A stretch of 64,000 bases of DNA, taken from contig CAZXEQ010000002.1 of the NCBI GenBank assembly GCA_964640155.1, forward strand, positions 322,342 to 386,341. The letters are read 5' to 3'. Made by a program: the position numbers and the translations under genes. Under the pieces are notes generated by a model that was not told the DNA's origin, made no database searches, and saw only the letters and a list, made by a program, of their open reading frames with translations. Source of the DNA: an uncultured bacterium. GTDB lineage: Bacteria > Auribacterota > JACPWU01. Of this stretch, positions 4,735 through 46,475 are shown in pieces (positions within the stretch are counted from its first letter, which is position 1; the number at the start of each line of letters is the position of its first letter).

Positions 4735-5163
4735 ATGATGAAAAGACCTTTTGTGATTAATTTTATAAGAGTTCTTACGTGGATTAAAATATTTCTGATT
4801 TGCTTTATTTTAGGCTTAACGGTGTTGTTTGCTGTATATATTCCTCAAAGCAATTTTTTCGGGAATTTTAGAAGAGGATGGATGCAAGCAGCCTTTGGTC
4901 AGAATTGGCAAGAAACAACCTCTTATACCTTAGGACAATTTACAGGAACTCTTATTTTCCCTCTCATCATTTCTATTCTCACTCTTTTATTCATCAGAAA
5001 ACGAATTTTTTATGGTTTGGTTGTGATATTGTTGATTAATATTTTAATGAGTTTGAAGGGAGTTTTAGCTACTTGTGTAGCGGTTATTTTATTTCTCGTT
5101 TTTATTCTAAATAAAAAAGCAAAAAATTATATGAAAAGAATAGATTTGCCCAAGGTAGAATAG
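4735..5163 (+). CDS. hypothetical integral membrane protein
   Basis: 142 aa, several hydrophobic helices; no recognised motif. Confidence 0.4.
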   Translation: MMKRPFVINFIRVLTWIKIFLICFILGLTVLFAVYIPQSNFFGNFRRGWMQAAFGQNWQETTSYTLGQFTGTLIFPLIISILTLLFIRKRIFYGLVVILLINILMSLKGVLATCVAVILFLVFILNKKAKNYMKRIDLPKVE

Positions 5164-5206
5164 AATGAGATTACTTCCTAAAAGTTAAAATGAAAGAACT
5201 CTTTTT

Positions 5207-5665
5207 ATGGAAATGAGTCGCATTATTCAGCTGATTCAGCAAGTGCTAGCCCCTGTCGTCATGGTTTCGAGTACGGCTTTACTTCTATTAGGGCTACAAA
5301 ATAAATTCTCAAATTTGGCGAGTCGTTTTCGAGTGTTGAACCATGAAAAACGACTTTTGCTTGCAAAAACAAGTCGTGAAACGCTAGAGGAAAATAGATT
5401 TCATAACTTGGTAGCTCAAGTCGATCATCTTATGAAACGAGCACGTTATGTGAAAAACGCAATTGTCTTGAGTTATCTGGGCATTGTTTTCTTTACAGGG
5501 ACGTCGGTTCTCATTTTTCTAAGTGCTTTTGCATCTTTTATGCCTCAGCTTTTAACTATAGGGATTTTTATGATGGGTCTTTTATGTATTTTTATTGCAT
5601 CAATCCTTATGATTTTAGAAGTGAACTTATTTCATAAGATTATTAGTTTAGAGTCTGAGTCTTAG
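5207..5665 (+). CDS. hypothetical membrane protein (DUF2721-like)
   Basis: 152 aa with hydrophobic segments at both ends around a charged central region; family assignment from memory only. Confidence 0.45.
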   Translation: MEMSRIIQLIQQVLAPVVMVSSTALLLLGLQNKFSNLASRFRVLNHEKRLLLAKTSRETLEENRFHNLVAQVDHLMKRARYVKNAIVLSYLGIVFFTGTSVLIFLSAFASFMPQLLTIGIFMMGLLCIFIASILMILEVNLFHKIISLESES

Positions 5666-5745
5666 TCTGTAAAAATTAAGGGTTTATTTTTTATGCCAAT
5701 AGGCTTTATAATAGGCCAAAGTTTTATTCAGGGACCCCAGACCGA

Positions 5746-6117
5746 ATGATTTTCTTCTGGAATAAGAACAGTACAAAAAATCGACGTAAAAAAGAACGTG
5801 TTTCTTTTCACGTTCCTGTAAAGATACTTGTTCCTTCTCTGGCTTCTATTCGTGGAGAAGCATATGTAGAGGTTCATGGGAAAAATATCAGTGAAGGTGG
5901 TATCCTTGTTGAGGCCAAGCGCAGTTATCCAAGGCTTGTTCCTTGCAGAATTAAAATTGACGGTCCTGGAGAATCGCAAGGGGCCGTTTTAGATGGAATG
6001 ATTATTTGGGCTGATGAGAATAGTAAGGTAGGAAATTGGGAAGTAGGAATTGCTTTTATTAATTTGCGTGAAGAAGAGAGAATGTTTCTCCATCAAATCG
6101 TTCTTCAATCCCAGTAA
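5746..6117 (+). CDS. PilZ domain protein (putative c-di-GMP binding)
   Basis: RRKKER (RxxxR-like) followed by NISEGG (D/NxSxxG) motif typical of PilZ. Confidence 0.55.
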   Translation: MIFFWNKNSTKNRRKKERVSFHVPVKILVPSLASIRGEAYVEVHGKNISEGGILVEAKRSYPRLVPCRIKIDGPGESQGAVLDGMIIWADENSKVGNWEVGIAFINLREEERMFLHQIVLQSQ

Positions 6118-6199
6118 GAATCTTTTGTAAAGGTGGTTAATTCTAGTTTCAATTTAACCCTACGATCTATACCCTAATCCCTATTCCCTGCTTTTAAAT

Positions 6200-6284
6200 G
6201 GAGAGGTGCGTGAGCGGCTGAAGCGGCACGCCTGGAAAGCGTGTAAACTGAAAGGTTTCGGGGGTTCGAATCCCCCCCTCTCCG
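6200..6284 (+). tRNA. tRNA-Ser (anticodon GGA)
   Basis: Cloverleaf with long variable arm, anticodon loop cuGGAaa, T-arm GGTTCGAATCC; acceptor ggagagg/cctctcc. Confidence 0.85.
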
Positions 6285-6346
6285 AGATTTACTTCTATTT
6301 GGGACACAAATCTTATCGGATACTTAATGGAACTTGTCATTTCCTT

Positions 6347-6976
6347 ATGAAGAAAATAGAGGATCCAACAACCTTACACCATTTATCTTTGCAGGCTAAG
6401 AAGTATCTGAGTGCATTTACAGATCGATCCATAAGCAACATGCTACCCTTTGTAGCTCCAAAAGTTCTTGAAAAATTAGGTGGAGAAGAAAATTTTGAAC
6501 AGTGCATGAAGCAGATTTTTTCAGAAGCTGATGGGAATTTAGATAAGGCAGCAATGCTTGATATCACAATTCAAGATCCTAAAGAAATATGTTCTATAGA
6601 TAGTAAGTTTATAAGTATATTGAAAAGCGAAGTTCCTTTTGTATTAGAAGGAAAATTGCTTGGGATAATCAATGGGATTACTATCGCTCTTTCGTCTGAT
6701 AAAGGTGAACACTGGGTATTTGTTGAAGGTACAGAAAATGGATTATCCTTACTTGATGAGAAAGAACAGGAGACGTTGGAACAAATAGGCCTCCCTAAAC
6801 CATCTTTTAAACCTGTGAAAGGTAGAAAAAGAATATACAAAGACCAATCAAGCATGCAAAGACATATGTTACTTATGACGTTATCAATTATGAAGCCGGA
6901 AATGGTTGCGGACAGTGCGTTGGATTTACGTAAATTTGTACAGCAATTGTTTAAGAATGCAAAACCATATGAATAG
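6347..6976 (+). CDS. hypothetical protein
   Basis: ORF 6206-6976 trimmed to first Met downstream of the tRNA (MKKIED...); no recognised domain. Confidence 0.4.
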   Translation: MKKIEDPTTLHHLSLQAKKYLSAFTDRSISNMLPFVAPKVLEKLGGEENFEQCMKQIFSEADGNLDKAAMLDITIQDPKEICSIDSKFISILKSEVPFVLEGKLLGIINGITIALSSDKGEHWVFVEGTENGLSLLDEKEQETLEQIGLPKPSFKPVKGRKRIYKDQSSMQRHMLLMTLSIMKPEMVADSALDLRKFVQQLFKNAKPYE

Positions 6977-12677: not shown

Positions 12678-12764
12678 GGAAGGGTGGCTGAGTGGTTGAA
12701 AGCGCGGGTCTCGAAAATCCGTTTCCGAGCAATCGGAACGTGGGTTCGAATCCCACCCCTTCCG
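12678..12764 (+). tRNA. tRNA-Ser (anticodon CGA)
   Basis: Long variable arm, anticodon loop cuCGAaa, T-arm GGTTCGAATCC, acceptor ggaaggg/cccttcc. Confidence 0.85.
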
Positions 12765-12787
12765 ATTCTAAAATTTTTTGAATATAT

Positions 12788-12898
12788 GGTAGGGATTCGA
12801 AGGGTACCCGAGCGCGTCCTGTGGACGATGAAGCGAGGGACCCCGGCTCCGGAGGAACGAATGAAATGAGTGGGGTAGGAGGAATCCCACCCCTTCCG
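12788..12898 (+). repeat. tRNA-downstream element copy 1 (starts GGGATTCGAAGGG, ends with duplicate of tRNA-Ser(CGA) 3' end)
   Basis: Shares 5' motif and CCGGAG...AACGAA...TAGG...AATCCC 3' module with the three other copies; terminal ggaatcccaccccttccg repeats the tRNA 3' end. Confidence 0.5.
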
Positions 12899-13044
12899 TC
12901 AGACTACGCTTCTGGGGGGACTTTGTCTGGCAGTGCCAGGCATGTAATCTTTTAATTTAAGAAGTAGGTGAGAGGGATCTATTAACTAAGTTATTCAAGT
13001 TGTGTTAAGATGTCCGCTAAACATTTAGTTTAAAGGAGGTTATT

Positions 13045-13425
13045 ATGGAAGGAATGGTTACACGAAAGGTGGAATTAAGAGGAATTGGATTTTTTTCAGT
13101 ATTTAAGATTTTTTTCTCAATCATATTGTTTTTTTCATTAGTTTTTCTTATCCTGTTTGATCTTTTTGGCTTTCAAATTGTGGGGACTTTGGCTGGATGG
13201 ATAGGGGATATCAGACAGCTTTTTGTTGATTTGCAAACAAAGTTTCCAAGTATTTTTGATAACAAGATATTATTTTCTTTGTTTCAATCTTTGTTATTAG
13301 GACTTATTTTAGGGCTGTTTATTGGTATTGCAACAGGCATTTTCAACCTTTTTGTAGCTCTTTTAGGTGGATTGAGTATTAAAATTAGAGAGAAGACCCC
13401 CGAGAAAAAAACATCATATCTTTAA
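13045..13425 (+). CDS. hypothetical membrane protein
   Basis: 126 aa, strongly hydrophobic; no recognised motif. Confidence 0.4.
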   Translation: MEGMVTRKVELRGIGFFSVFKIFFSIILFFSLVFLILFDLFGFQIVGTLAGWIGDIRQLFVDLQTKFPSIFDNKILFSLFQSLLLGLILGLFIGIATGIFNLFVALLGGLSIKIREKTPEKKTSYL

Positions 13426-13520
13426 AACTAGGGGATGGGGAGTAGGGCATAGGGTTTAGGGGAGGTAAGTATGAAAGTATTTTATCCCTGAATTTTAAGC
13501 TCTACTCTCTATTTTTGTCG

Positions 13521-13594
13521 CGCCCGTAGCTCAGCTGGATAGAGCACTTGCCTACGAAGCAAGGGGCCACAGGTTCAAATCCTGTCGGGCGCAC
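13521..13594 (+). tRNA. tRNA-Arg (anticodon ACG)
   Basis: gcgcccgTAGCTCAGCTGGATAGAGC D-arm, anticodon loop cuACGaa, T-arm GGTTCAAATCC, acceptor pairing gcgcccg/cgggcgc. Confidence 0.85.
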
Positions 13595-13632
13595 GAATTC
13601 ACGAGTGCAATAATTACTTGAGTCATTAACGG

Positions 13633-13727
13633 CAGGATTTGAAGGGAGGGCCGGGTGGCCGACTTGTAGGTCGAAGACCGGAAGGCACCAAATCCTCTCT
13701 CCGGAGACGGGCATGCTGTCGGGCCCC
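13633..13727 (+). repeat. tRNA-downstream element copy 2 (shorter or degenerate)
   Basis: GGATTTGAAGGGAG...GGGTGGCCGAC motifs shared with copies 3 and 4; ends near a partial match to the tRNA-Arg 3' end (tgtcgggc). Confidence 0.4.
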
Positions 13728-13751
13728 AAACTTTATATGAAGTGTGAATGT

Positions 13752-14228
13752 ATGATACAAGAGACTCCTATTGATGAAAAAGATATAAAGTATATGACTG
13801 AAGCTTTGAAAGAAGCTCAGTATGCTTTTGATGATGGAGAAACACCTGTAGGAGCTTGTATTGTGTATGAAGGGAAAATTATTGCACGCTCTCATAATCA
13901 AGTGGAGCTTTTAAGAGATTCTACGGCTCATGCTGAGATGATTGCCATGACTCAAGCTGCCGATTTTCTGAATAACTGGCGATTGTTAAATTGTACACTT
14001 TATGTGACAAAAGAGCCTTGTTTGATGTGCACAGGTGCGATTTTGCTTTCAAGAATTCCTCGGCTTGTTTTTGGTGCTTTTGATGTGAGAAATAGGGGAT
14101 TAAGAGATTTAATTCATCCAGGTTATGAACCAGAAATGAAACAATTAAATATAGTGCAGGGAGTTTTAGAAGCAGATTGTCAATTTCTTTTGAAAGAATT
14201 TTTTAAGAAGGCTAGAGAAAAATCATAG
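13752..14228 (+). CDS. tadA: tRNA-specific adenosine(34) deaminase
   Basis: HAEMIAM and PCLMCTGA zinc-binding motifs; ~155 aa; start moved to Met (MIQETP) downstream of the repeat-overlapping ORF start at 13713. Confidence 0.85.
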   Translation: MIQETPIDEKDIKYMTEALKEAQYAFDDGETPVGACIVYEGKIIARSHNQVELLRDSTAHAEMIAMTQAADFLNNWRLLNCTLYVTKEPCLMCTGAILLSRIPRLVFGAFDVRNRGLRDLIHPGYEPEMKQLNIVQGVLEADCQFLLKEFFKKAREKS

Positions 14229-14282
14229 GTTGTAAATTAGTTTTTTATTTCGAATTACGATATACGAGATACTATTTTTGAA

Positions 14283-14371
14283 GGAGAGGTGGCTGAGTGG
14301 CCTAAAGCGACGGCTTGCTAAGCCGTTGTACTGTTAATTCAGTACCGGGGGTTCGAATCCCCCCCTCTCCG
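14283..14371 (+). tRNA. tRNA-Ser (anticodon GCU)
   Basis: Long variable arm, anticodon loop uuGCUaa, T-arm GGTTCGAATCC, acceptor ggagagg/cctctcc. Confidence 0.85.
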
Positions 14372-14445
14372 AAGTTTATTGGTAGCTTTAAAGTTAGCGG
14401 AAAGCAGCTTGAGCAAGAGGTCCATGTCGGTTATTGGGATTCGAA

Positions 14446-14564
14446 GGGAGGCCTGACATAGCATAATGCAAATCATGCACTGCATGATTTGCGACTGTTA
14501 GGAGGGCCGGGTGGCCGACCGGAGTGAGTGTAACGAACGTAGGCGCCGAATCCCCCCCTCTCCG
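14446..14564 (+). repeat. tRNA-downstream element copy 3
   Basis: GGGATTCGAAGGGAG start, internal hairpin (gcaaatcatgca/tgcatgatttgc), GGGTGGCCGACCGGAGTGA module, ends with cgaatccccccctctccgaagttta duplicating the tRNA-Ser(GCU) 3' end and flank. Confidence 0.5.
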
Positions 14565-14571
14565 AAGTTTA

Positions 14572-15261
14572 TCAAATCCATCCGGCAAAGAAAGCCACAC
14601 GTCCTTCTATATTCATTTTATAATTTTTGAAATTTTGGCTCAGAACTTTCTCCAAATCAGTCGCAGAATCTTTCTGATTTCCAAAAATTCCCTTCTTATT
14701 ATAGAGATTCATTAATTTTCTTCCTAGAAAGTTGTGTTCAATCCCTCCTCCCAAAATAGTTGTTCCAAAAATAACTCCTTGGGAACCCATCAAAGGTTTT
14801 AAGTGTTCAAAAACCTTTGCTTTATCTTGCATGTTTCCTGGAAGACAATGAAGAAGATATCCAAGTCCTATGGATGTGAAGTTTTTCTCATTCAATGGAA
14901 TGGGCTTGAGAACGTTTGCAACAAGTGTTTTAGGACGATACCGAGCAATGCGTCTGGTGGTGACCTCTAGACAATGAGGATTTAGATCCAAAAGAGTCAA
15001 AGAGAGATGCTGTGACGGGAATTGGCATTTATCTAAAAAGTAACCAGTTCCTACACCCACTTCTAAATGATGATCCGTTACATGATTGTTGTAAAAATCT
15101 AAAATTTTTTTTGTAGAACATTTCCATGCAAAATGATTTGAAAGTCCTAAAACAAAAAGATCATAGAGAGATAATACAAGCTTGGTATATACTGCTGCTC
15201 CAGAGTTTTCAGATGTATGTGTAGGGGCCATATGAACCTGGTTTTTCATGCAAGATAACAT
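14572..15261 (-). CDS. class I SAM-dependent methyltransferase
   Basis: LEVGVGTGYF glycine-rich SAM-binding motif I. Confidence 0.65.
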   Translation of the reverse strand: MLSCMKNQVHMAPTHTSENSGAAVYTKLVLSLYDLFVLGLSNHFAWKCSTKKILDFYNNHVTDHHLEVGVGTGYFLDKCQFPSQHLSLTLLDLNPHCLEVTTRRIARYRPKTLVANVLKPIPLNEKNFTSIGLGYLLHCLPGNMQDKAKVFEHLKPLMGSQGVIFGTTILGGGIEHNFLGRKLMNLYNKKGIFGNQKDSATDLEKVLSQNFKNYKMNIEGRVAFFAGWI

Positions 15262-44045: not shown

Positions 44046-44152
44046 GTTCTGCATATTTAAATTAGATCTTAGCATTTTTTACGAATAGCATCTTCAGTGT
44101 TGAGGCTAAAAACTTTTTTTGTTAATGTCTCTGGTCGAAATTTAGAATTTAC

Positions 44153-44224
44153 GCTGGTGTAGCTCAACGGTAGAGCACCTGATTTGTAATCAGGCGGTTG
44201 CGGGTTCAAATCCCATCACCAGCT
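44153..44224 (+). tRNA. tRNA-Thr (anticodon UGU)
   Basis: gctggtgTAGCTCAACGGTAGAGC, anticodon loop uuUGUaa, T-loop TTCAAATCC; one apparent T-stem mismatch. Confidence 0.7.
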
Positions 44225-44277
44225 GTTTCTTTGTGCAGTAGGAAATTGCAAAGGAATCTCACAGACTTGAAGAGCTG

Positions 44278-44412
44278 ATGGGAGGATTTGAAGGGAGCTC
44301 CGACGCCTTTATGATGCTGATCATGCGGTGCATGATCAGCGACGTCTAGTCGGAGCGGGTGGCCGACCGGAGTGAACGAAGTGAACATAGGCGCCAAATC
44401 CCATCACCAGCT
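44278..44412 (+). repeat. tRNA-downstream element copy 4
   Basis: GGGAGGATTTGAAGGGAG start, long hairpin (gctccgac...gatgctgatcatgc-ggt-gcatgatcagc...gtcggagc), GGGTGGCCGACCGGAGTGA module, ends with caaatcccatcaccagctgtt duplicating the tRNA-Thr 3' end. Confidence 0.5.
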
Positions 44413-44486
44413 GTTTTTTTATCATTCATAAAATAACCTCTTGGTTTTTTCTGATCCGTAGTAAAATGTGAAAGGGATTTATCTAC

Positions 44487-46084: not shown

Positions 46085-46174
46085 TAAAAGTAGGGTTTAG
46101 GGCATAGGGATAAGGGTTGAGAGATACGTTTTTCTCTAAACCCTAGACCCTATACGCTAAGTCCTGAGTTTAAT

Positions 46175-46304: not shown

Positions 46305-46377
46305 GCCGAGATAGCTCAGCCGGCAGAGCACGTCCTTGGTAAGGACGAGGCCACGGGTTCGATTCCCGTTCTCGGCT
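46305..46377 (+). tRNA. tRNA-Thr (anticodon GGU)
   Basis: gccgagaTAGCTCAGCCGGCAGAGC, anticodon loop uuGGUaa, T-arm CGGGTTCGATTCCCG. Confidence 0.85.
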
Positions 46378-46475
46378 AAGTTATGAGGCTTAGAATAAAT
46401 TTAGAAACAAACGGGATTTGAATTTTTTAAGACGTGGAAATATTAAGAAGAACTTGAATAGGGGAGAAAAACAAA

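Follow-up and report, generated by a model that had tools for sequence, protein, structure and literature searches.

Within a 64-kb stretch of a contig from an uncultured bacterium of the Auribacterota (CAZXEQ010000002.1; the whole stretch is hereafter called the window), we found that four transfer RNA (tRNA) genes are each followed, directly 3' and in the same orientation, by a non-coding unit of 110-200 bp that carries towards its 5' side a segment complementary to the end of that tRNA and at its 3' side a copy of the same end. These units form one family, with a common anatomy at different tRNA genes and on other contigs; their helices covary, they are under selection, and relatives differ both in whether a given site is filled or empty and in the number of copies that it holds. 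They match no described RNA or mobile-element family that we found. The explanation that we prefer, although with slightly less than even confidence, is a non-autonomous insertion that targets tRNA genes and is maintained as a structured RNA.

Identification and boundaries of the units

ARAGORN and Rfam identified nine tRNA genes in the window, all on the + strand. A covariance model (R1), built from 11 full-length copies and run unfiltered over both strands of the 64 kb, gave four matches above noise (E1 to E4, scores in the list below), each of them immediately behind a tRNA gene and on the strand of that gene, while the remaining five tRNA genes have ordinary trailers. A preliminary description of the window, made from the sequence, had reported only three such elements, behind tRNA-Ser(CGA), tRNA-Arg(ACG) and tRNA-Ser(GCU). 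These are present where it placed them (E1, E2 and E3), but a further copy behind tRNA-Thr(UGU) had been missed; this copy, E4, was exposed by a fourth exact match to the 5' motif GGATTYGAAGGG together with the 11-mer GGGTGGCCGAC. The motif occurs five times in the window, as compared to 0.85 expected occurrences.

Full-length copies consist, from 5' to 3', of a spacer (12-110 nt), the complementary segment, the purine run GAAGGGAG, the first strand of helix P2, the P3 hairpin, the return strand of P2, the 19-mer GGGUGGCCGACCGGAGUGA, a small variable hairpin (P4), (G)AACGNAGGCGCC and the tRNA-end copy. The near-invariant module is GGGUGGCCGACCGGAGUGA...AGGCGCC. The features of the window are the following, the internal parts of E1 being read from the sequence.

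12678-12764, + strand: tRNA-Ser(CGA), host of E1 (ARAGORN; Rfam tRNA, 60 bits)
12765-12898, + strand: E1, divergent subtype (R1 17.5 bits, E = 0.006), structured part 12787-12898
12765-12787, + strand: E1 spacer
12788-12799, + strand: E1 5' complementary segment, GGTAGGGATTCG
from 12800, + strand: E1 interior, junction AAGGGTA, then hairpins, then CCGGAGGAACGAA
12882-12898, + strand: E1 tRNA 3'-end copy, GAATCCCACCCCTTCCG, exact over 17 nt
13520-13594, + strand: tRNA-Arg(ACG), host of E2 (ARAGORN, Rfam)
13595-13725, + strand: E2, degraded copy (R1 46.6 bits)
13631-13641, + strand: E2 complementary segment, GGCAGGATTTG
13641-13648, + strand: E2 motif GAAGGGAG
13653-13663, + strand: GGGTGGCCGAC in E2
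13678-13689, + strand: CCGGAAGGCACC in E2
13689-13696, + strand: first piece of the E2 tRNA-end copy, CAAATCCT
13697-13716, + strand: palindromic 20-nt insert splitting the E2 tRNA-end copy, containing the palindrome TCTCCGGAGA
13717-13724, + strand: second piece of the E2 tRNA-end copy, TGTCGGGC
14283-14371, + strand: tRNA-Ser(GCU), host of E3 (ARAGORN, Rfam)
14372-14572, + strand: E3, full-length, including the duplicated trailer (R1 137 bits)
14372-14435, + strand: E3 spacer
14436-14443, + strand: E3 P1 5' strand, GGGATTCG
14444-14450, + strand: E3 junction, AAGGGAG
14450-14454 with 14504-14508, + strand: E3 P2
14468-14492, + strand: E3 P3 hairpin
14509-14527, + strand: E3 invariant 19-mer
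14542-14547, + strand: E3 P5 3' strand, GGCGCC
14548-14564, + strand: E3 tRNA-end copy, GAATCCCCCCCTCTCCG
14565-14572, + strand: E3 duplicated trailer of 8 nt, AAGTTTAT
44153-44224, + strand: tRNA-Thr(UGU), host of E4 (ARAGORN, Rfam), with a promoter-like site at 44119-44148
44225-44416, + strand: E4, full-length, including the duplicated trailer (R1 127 bits; fold z = -2.66)
44225-44272, + strand: E4 spacer
44273-44290, + strand: E4 P1 5' strand, AGCTGATGGGAGGATTTG
44291-44297, + strand: E4 junction
44297-44304 with 44349-44356, + strand: E4 P2
44317-44339, + strand: E4 P3
44357-44375, + strand: E4 19-mer
44390-44395, + strand: GGCGCC in E4
44396-44412, + strand: E4 tRNA-end copy
44413-44416, + strand: E4 duplicated GTTT, followed by a T run
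46305-46386, + strand: empty site, the native trailer AAGTTATGA adjoining tRNA-Thr(GGU) with no unit in between (alignment with L004)

Matching of the unit ends to the host tRNA

The tRNA-end copy spans positions C56/R57 to N73 (the discriminator). In 15 of the 17 distinct copies that make up our family sample it is 17-18 nt long and either exact or with one mismatch; in L042 (L-numbers denote loci on other contigs), whose tRNA-Arg gene encodes CCA, it measures 21 nt. The left boundary of the repeat falls at C56/R57 in every intact copy, over eight tRNA species, the hosts so far being Ser(CGA), Ser(GCU), Arg(ACG), Thr(UGU), Thr(GGU), Gly(UCC), Tyr(GUA) and Leu(UAG). Beyond the tRNA-end copy a further 0-9 nt of trailer is duplicated, and the total duplication, of which only the right end varies, amounts to 17-27 bp. 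A direct repeat of the tRNA end had been described for all three of the elements first noticed: it is exact in E1 and present in E3, but in E2 it is split by the 20-nt insert. The junction of this insert, AAATCCTCTCTCCG, is similar to a tRNA-Ser-type end.

The complementary segment is the reverse complement of the 3' half of the T-loop and of the 3' strand of the T-stem, sometimes also of the 3' strand of the acceptor. GGATTCG accompanies TTCGAATCC tRNAs, and GGATTTG accompanies TTCAAATCC tRNAs; in RNA letters, GGAUUCG is found at the T-loop UUCGAAUCC, GGAUUUG at UUCAAAUCC and GGAAUCG at UUCGAUUCC. The 5' motif had been noted in the preliminary description, but not its complementarity to the 3' side of the T-loop and T-stem; since the motif tracks the T-loop of the host, it is not arbitrary. 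In the verrucomicrobial tRNA-Tyr unit of L006, the segment GGGCAGGCCAGGG complements the T-stem 3' and acceptor 3' strands perfectly over 13 nt, and its sequence is that of the tRNA acceptor 5' strand joined to the T-stem 5' strand. Over 14 copies, the mean duplex energy of the segment was -16.3 kcal/mol with its own repeat, as compared to -11.6 kcal/mol with the repeats of other tRNA species; the own repeat ranked first in 5 of these copies and among the top three in 9. The complementary segment is therefore tRNA-specific.

Two further sequences resemble the units in part. In L042 (2134-2298), 3' of tRNA-Ser(CGA), the GGAAGGGAG motif and an exact 18-nt tRNA-end copy enclose a different interior that has no GGGUGGCCGACCGGAG and was missed by the covariance model; given this unit, the family is probably broader than the scans based on the 19-mer show. 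In L005 (2675-2820), 3' of tRNA-Ser(GGA), a sequence starts with GAGGGATTCGAA, a T-loop complement, and continues with an unrelated long hairpin and no tRNA-end copy; it may be a remnant or another variant.

Fold and covariation

RNAalifold, applied to the alignment of 11 sequences, predicts a three-way junction of the helices P1, P2 and P5. In P1 the complementary segment pairs with that part of the tRNA-end copy which stems from the T-loop and T-stem; in P5, GGUG(G)CC pairs with GGCGCC. P2 and P3 make up one arm, which covaries, P5 and P4 make up the other, which consists of the near-invariant module, and the purine run GAAGGGAG is the junction strand. The paired cells amount to 90.9%, as compared to 81.7% in shuffled alignments. 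A check of covariation, suggested in the preliminary description, gave a score of 0.258 against 0.096 ± 0.02 in shuffles, none of 500 reaching the observed value, and sliding the pairing partners by 1-3 columns reduced the score to 0.098 or less.

In P2, both-sided changes affect 4 of the 5 pairs; this helix is often extended by tandem G.A/A.G, with Watson-Crick pairs instead in E4 and L030. All full-length copies have at P3 a hairpin of 8-12 bp, for which at least five unrelated sequences occur, and the P3 of E3 differs from that of the L042 Ser(GCU) copy, by inspection, in three both-sided changes and one U.G. Each of the three elements first described had been credited with a hairpin; E1 and E3 have it, but E2 lacks the central hairpin because its P2/P3 arm is deleted. 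In P5 a U.G pair is conserved, with C-G instead in one planctomycete copy. The retention of this U.G pair points to the tRNA-sense strand, and when both strands are folded, the plus strand gives the better fold in 10 of 15 copies. Judging from these sequence features, the structure appears to be selected on the tRNA-sense strand, as RNA or possibly as that strand in the form of single-stranded DNA. In the predicted fold, P1 of the best-preserved copies is a base-for-base imitation of the tRNA acceptor and T-stem helix.

Three resemblances are for now regarded as coincidences: the 10-nt identity of GACCGGAGUG with the strand on the 3' side of the sarcin-ricin loop of 23S RNA, GGA motifs like CsrA sites, and a possible kink-turn in P5.

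Selection on the units and assembly check

We compared the window with a related Auribacterota metagenome-assembled genome (MAG). Identity is 99-100% for the tRNAs and, for the core of the units from the complementary segment to the tRNA-end copy, 98.5% for E4 (against L004) and 97.7% for E3 (against L012). In the same comparison rmuC is 89.4% identical, tadA 80.6% and the convergent coding sequence after E3 78.1%, while the E3 spacer reaches 85.9% and two intergenic regions 75% and 46%. Since the core and the spacer of E3 diverge differently, this pattern speaks for purifying selection on the core more than for a recent transfer of the whole unit. Purifying selection on E3 and E4 is as strong as on tRNAs. 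The suggestion in the preliminary description that the elements might be decayed does not agree with these values (about 98% identity between orthologues for E3 and E4, as compared to 78-89% for genes and 46-75% for intergenic DNA); only E2 looks degraded.

About 1.8 kb of the window, with E1 and E2, recurs without any difference in an independent assembly of the same strain (L067, Logan SRR8893623). The contig of that assembly stops precisely at the 3'-terminal base of tRNA-Ser(GCU), which indicates that the repeated tRNA end breaks short-read assemblies.

Comparison with known families and coding capacity

Rfam searches of the window and six other loci gave no match for the units, either at the gathering score or at E values up to 10, and recognised real tRNAs only. 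The weak matches to tmRNA_permuted (13.6 bits), YrlA (16 bits), sX4 and Plastid-psbI-rps4 are at noise level or caused by the real tRNA itself; those to tmRNA_permuted and YrlA are driven by the T-arm of the real tRNA. Plastid-psbI-rps4 (RF04351) matches the antisense strand of tRNA-Ser genes (in the window 12714-12764 and 14318-14371, - strand) with up to 62.9 bits against a gathering score of 68, and this model seems to be largely an antisense tRNA-Ser. Covariance models of hammerhead, twister, twister-sister, pistol, hatchet, hepatitis delta virus-like and group I and group II RNAs had no match over the elements. Outside the element, at the end of the L041 contig (69-136) and some 75 nt 5' of the tRNA-Arg(ACG) that carries the element, we observed a match to group II intron domain V/VI (56 bits, gathering score 40), which shows that a reverse-transcriptase-encoding retroelement lives in that genome. 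As for the IS200/IS605 guide RNAs (omega RNA) and HEARO, neither an Rfam match nor a nearby tnpB or iscB was found. A search of the literature, by sequence string included, found no description of the family.

Open reading frames (ORFs) within the units are chance ones and no unit can encode a protein, in agreement with the earlier remark that the elements are too small for an integrase. Mini-ORFs of the type MQIMHCMICDC in P3 (E3, E4 and L004) were rejected: by inspection the frame is lost in the L042, planctomycete and verrucomicrobial copies, so that the AUGs are a by-product of the AUCAUGC/GCAUGAU palindrome. At the elements we detected no convincing promoter or terminator of their own. 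The terminator scan was empty there; the closing helix of E4 is followed by seven T, a configuration outside the definition used by that scan.

Distribution among relatives

The same architecture, always 3' of a tRNA, was found in L004 and L012 (Candidatus Auribacterota, close relatives of the window organism), L002 (Candidatus Omnitrophota), L005 (Planctomycetales, two copies), L006 (Lacunisphaera, Verrucomicrobiota, two copies) and in the three metagenome contigs L024, L030 and L033. Look-ups anchored on TadA added L041 (two copies) and L042 (three copies). The genome and metagenome scans used the exact 19-mer, so divergent members are under-sampled; all other matches of these scans are chance occurrences in high-GC coding DNA. 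The 19-mer is identical across four phylum-level groups. The recurrence of the units in these groups and the covariation of their helices support one of the possibilities raised at the outset, that of a tRNA-linked small RNA family.

The distribution is patchy across relatives. The tRNA-Arg-tadA-tRNA-Ser locus has no unit in L043 (TadA 69% identical), nor in any of the Omnitrophota and other loci L045-L058, and the Thr-Tyr-Gly-Thr tRNA cluster of L061 has none. Look-ups based on EF-Tu mostly reached the other tuf copy, which has no tRNAs. We also observed that L006, from a Lacunisphaera MAG, is identical over the stretches compared, including the tRNA-Tyr element, to L011, from a Candidatus Omnitrophota MAG of the same study; at least one of the two bins is therefore contaminated, and the phylum labels of these MAG contigs need caution.

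Insertion or loss and probable movement of the units

In L004, a 196-bp unit (R1 109 bits) lies between tRNA-Thr(GGU) and the trailer AAGTTATGA, whereas the corresponding site in the window is empty. The difference between the two is exactly one unit plus one 17-nt repeat, and the native trailer follows the distal copy. L002 contains two identical tandem units of 120 bp, L033 only one. The preliminary description had recognised in the displaced tRNA end the footprint of tRNA-targeted integration. The order of intact tRNA, insert and displaced copy from position 56/57 to the discriminator with 0-9 nt of trailer bears this out, as do the precise filled and empty Thr(GGU) site and the tandem polymorphism of L033 and L002. 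E2 is present in the window and in L041 and absent from the same spacer in L012; the alignment identifies it as the orthologue of the full-length L041 element, from which P2-P3 was deleted between two GGGAGG repeats.

The same subtype is found at different tRNA species. The E3 type occurs at both Ser(GCU) and Thr(GGU), with ends matching each tRNA, interiors about 95% identical (estimated from the alignment) and homologous spacers (35 as compared to 19.5 ± 3.8, reached by 0 of 500 shuffles). Similarly, the E1 type is at Ser(CGA) in the window and at Ser(GCU) in L041 (26 bits). A target duplication extending into the intergenic region was considered by comparing the left part of the L004 unit with the native Thr(GGU)-tuf spacer, but 21 of 500 and 84 of 500 shuffles were as good or better and the likeness is not convincing.

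In three loci unrelated to one another, but not in the window, homing-endonuclease-like ORFs directly precede tRNA-Ser genes that carry an element: LAGLIDADG_3 in L005 (1264-2328, E = 1e-11), GIY-YIG in L042 (1665-1910, 81 aa) and a 46-aa fragment in L041 (1077-1217). A link with movement of these tRNA regions is possible.

Proposed origin and maintenance of the units

If the units are non-autonomous insertions, they would be inserted into, or lost from, different tRNA genes by an event whose footprint is that of T-loop-anchored tRNA integration, with the tRNA regenerated. Because they encode nothing, the mobilising factor would have to be encoded elsewhere and to act in trans. The likely device matching the copy to its tRNA is the complementary segment; in the most economical idea, this segment would act like a guide that base-pairs to the target, after which correction of the heteroduplex would follow the target sequence. 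Once in place, the unit is probably co-transcribed with the upstream tRNA, because no promoter of its own was detected, and its core is kept by strong purifying selection, which implies that the folded RNA (or single strand) does something. Its most likely role would be that of a tRNA "top-half" mimic, handled by tRNA-processing enzymes and presenting the core to a partner: RNase P, RNase Z and the CCA-adding enzyme may process the unit RNA, and the partner may bind GAAGGGAG and the P5 module.

Several points weigh against this explanation. The neighbours of the window units are RlmI-like, TadA, RmuC and methyltransferase genes, with no recombinase, transposase or reverse transcriptase near them. 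The full-length, integrase-bearing relative that the preliminary description had proposed to look for, and indeed any autonomous form, was not found in about 20 loci or in viral contigs, where pattern scans of IMG/VR gave nothing or one chance match in a high-GC coding region. The empty Thr(GGU) site could equally derive from loss, by precise deletion between the 17-bp repeats. A simple T-loop crossover onto a new tRNA species would yield chimeric tRNAs, and the re-matching of both ends is thus the observation most difficult to account for. The assignment of the product to RNA draws on covariation, the U.G pair and the strand bias. Acceptor mimicry is incomplete in some copies, in which P1 measures only 8-10 bp (E3 and E1). 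Moreover, minimum-energy folds of the whole transcript (tRNA plus element, for E4, E1 and the L005 Ser(GCU) copy) favour a strand-swapped form: here the partner of the complementary segment is the 3' side of the real tRNA. Such a form would be harmful unless kinetically avoided.

The strongest competitor, to which we give about half the credit of our preferred explanation, is a tRNA-linked small RNA that has become domesticated and immobile, having derived from a tRNA-Ser-like gene, been seeded long ago and been kept similar by gene conversion, with the empty sites arising from deletions between repeats. Purifying selection at the level of tRNAs fits such a history, as do copies held in common by different loci: the Arg(ACG) element is common to the window lineage and L041, whose TadA is only 71% identical, and the E3 type is at Ser(GCU) in the window, L012 and L042. 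Repeats of 17 bp suffice for slippage deletion and for unequal crossing-over, as between L002 and L033. A tRNA ancestry would account for the P5 arm, which resembles a class-II tRNA D-arm (GGUGGCCGA..GG..AGGCGC), and for UAGGAGNGG, which resembles the tRNA-Ser acceptor 5' strand, although the resemblance to the D-arm is a reading of the sequence by eye. What this history does not provide for is the same subtype, spacer included, at different tRNA species with re-matched ends, for which gene conversion of the interior alone is insufficient. The patchiness among relatives also speaks against it, and the identical 19-mer in four phylum-level groups suggests either extreme constraint or horizontal movement.

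A bolder version of the insertion idea seems to us rather improbable, though worth stating. The units would be protein-less, self-targeting parasites or symbionts of tRNA genes: a folded nucleic acid of about 130 nt, whose internal guide, namely the 5' complementary segment, recognises the conserved T-loop and T-stem of any tRNA gene or transcript, which becomes inserted behind the gene with the 3' end of the target copied in, and whose RNA is also a tRNA top-half mimic. Such units would amount to a novel class of tRNA-specific mobile elements guided by nucleic acid. In a related proposal, in which the host makes use of the unit, a conserved scaffold would present a co-expressed spare 3' end of each tRNA, as protection from nucleases directed at the T-loop or the acceptor end, whether in the role of decoy or of repair donor.

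It is unlikely that the units are cis-acting devices in which strand exchange, with the segment pairing either the real tRNA or the downstream copy, controls folding, 3' processing or termination of the tRNA transcript. The strand-swapped minimum-energy folds mentioned above are what such a switch would need, seven T come after the closing helix of E4, and every unit is linked in cis to its tRNA, at a distance of 12-110 nt and in the same orientation. On the other hand, units are missing from the majority of tRNAs in the genomes that contain them and from the orthologous tRNAs in relatives, the terminator scan is empty at the elements, a folding switch has no need of the invariant P5 module, and a strand-swapped tRNA would carry a T-loop insertion of about 200 nt and be useless.

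Inert remnants of integrase-bearing islands or prophages, with interiors deleted and only the two att arms and the displaced tRNA fragment left, are already disfavoured and in our opinion very improbable. The position of the repeat fits T-loop attB sites such as that of mycobacteriophage Ms6 (PMC1762012), but inert DNA would not be 98% conserved where genes are at 78-89%, would not show compensatory changes in helices, and would not display the same compact architecture in four phylum-level groups without a large form in about 20 loci or a match in viral contigs. Finally, chance similarity or an assembly artefact, which the stop of the L067 contig at the 3' end of tRNA-Ser(GCU) might suggest, since the repeat disturbs assemblers, is refuted by the identical sequence in that independent assembly, by orthologues in other samples and phyla and by covariance-model scores of up to 137 bits, and we consider it virtually impossible.

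Relation to known systems

tRNA genes are the classic landing sites of large mobile DNA. Islands and prophages integrated at tRNA and transfer-messenger RNA (tmRNA) genes by tyrosine integrases, with the crossover in the T-loop (Islander, PMC4383910), share with the units the intact tRNA, the insert and the displaced 3' copy with trailer bases. Target choice by homology also has a precedent, since editing the attP core of Ms6 to match the T-loop of another tRNA retargets integration (PMC1762012). Unlike islands, the units measure 110-200 bp, have neither integrase nor ORF and no large relatives that we found, and one lineage of them occupies at least eight tRNA species; their interior is a covarying, selected fold and not a set of protein-binding arms, and it contains an extra, inverted copy of the target.

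A partial likeness exists to the tRNA-like domain of tmRNA and to YrlA (PMC4201824), in which the 5' and 3' ends pair as an acceptor-like helix and a structured body stands on a tRNA-like module. Unlike these RNAs, the units have no Rfam match, no complete T-arm (half of the T-loop is base-paired) and no tag reading frame, and the mimic copies whichever tRNA lies upstream and is present in many copies per genome. The 5' sequence of the units, GGAUUCGAAGGGA, also resembles the 5' region of E. coli tmRNA, GGAUUCGACGGGA.

Miniature inverted-repeat transposable elements (MITEs) and structured repeats such as Correia, ERIC, REP/BIME and those derived from IS200/IS605 are small, non-coding, multi-copy and non-autonomous, are co-transcribed with their neighbours and form stable hairpins. 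The units have in common with MITEs the small size, the lack of coding capacity, the presence of several copies (four in 64 kb) and the presence/absence polymorphism. In MITEs, however, the terminal inverted repeats are element-specific and constant, whereas in the units it is the interior that stays constant, and the pairing ends vary with the target; likewise, the target duplication of MITEs is short and of fixed length, whereas that of the units is 17-27 bp and anchored at one tRNA position. We know of no parent insertion sequence for the units.

Integron attC sites and the CTX phage attP hairpin, which imitates dif, are folded single-strand substrates of a recombinase encoded elsewhere. 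In the units, too, structure is kept over sequence in parts, and by analogy the pairing of the segment with the tRNA-end copy would rebuild the target duplex; their target is instead a tRNA gene, and the likeness to attC is a mechanistic analogy only. Group I and group II introns have internal guide sequences complementary to the flanking target, and the unit segment is similarly complementary to its flanking target and changes with it. The units nevertheless have no intron core (Rfam) and are far too small, and the tRNA upstream is already complete and needs no splicing.

An element of about 130 nt with the landing geometry of tRNA-targeted mobile DNA would be new in three ways, being geneless, re-matched to at least eight tRNAs and conserved like tRNAs. 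If it is mobile, trans-acting machinery and a way to copy the target into both ends would be needed. If it is domesticated, members of the Auribacterota, Omnitrophota, Planctomycetota and Verrucomicrobiota would make, alongside many tRNAs, a "shadow" RNA with the same 3' end carried by a conserved scaffold, and an unrecognised layer of tRNA biology would be implied; these phyla are little studied. Island-finding programs that depend on displaced tRNA fragments can be led astray by the units.

Additional observations

A second, unrelated repeat is associated with tRNA genes in the window. Clusters of TAGGG (TAGGGNNTAGGG) give 6 matches as compared to 0.27 expected, all adjoining tRNA genes, at the following positions.

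6172-6183, - strand: TAGGG cluster
13443-13461, + strand: TAGGG cluster
46091-46109, + strand: TAGGG cluster
46141-46152, - strand: TAGGG cluster

One of these sites lies 5' of tRNA-Ser(GGA) and one 5' of tRNA-Arg(ACG); the other two, inverted with respect to each other, make up a hairpin in the interval from tRNA-Tyr to tRNA-Gly. Runs similar to these clusters flank tRNAs in L043 and L002.

The EF-Tu homologues P0126-P0128 (475-491 aa) are annotated with extensions of about 80 residues. In L061 the extended EF-Tu call (5001-6428) starts about 50 nt downstream of tRNA-Thr(GGU) (4872-4947), and for this reason the extension probably results from a mis-called start.

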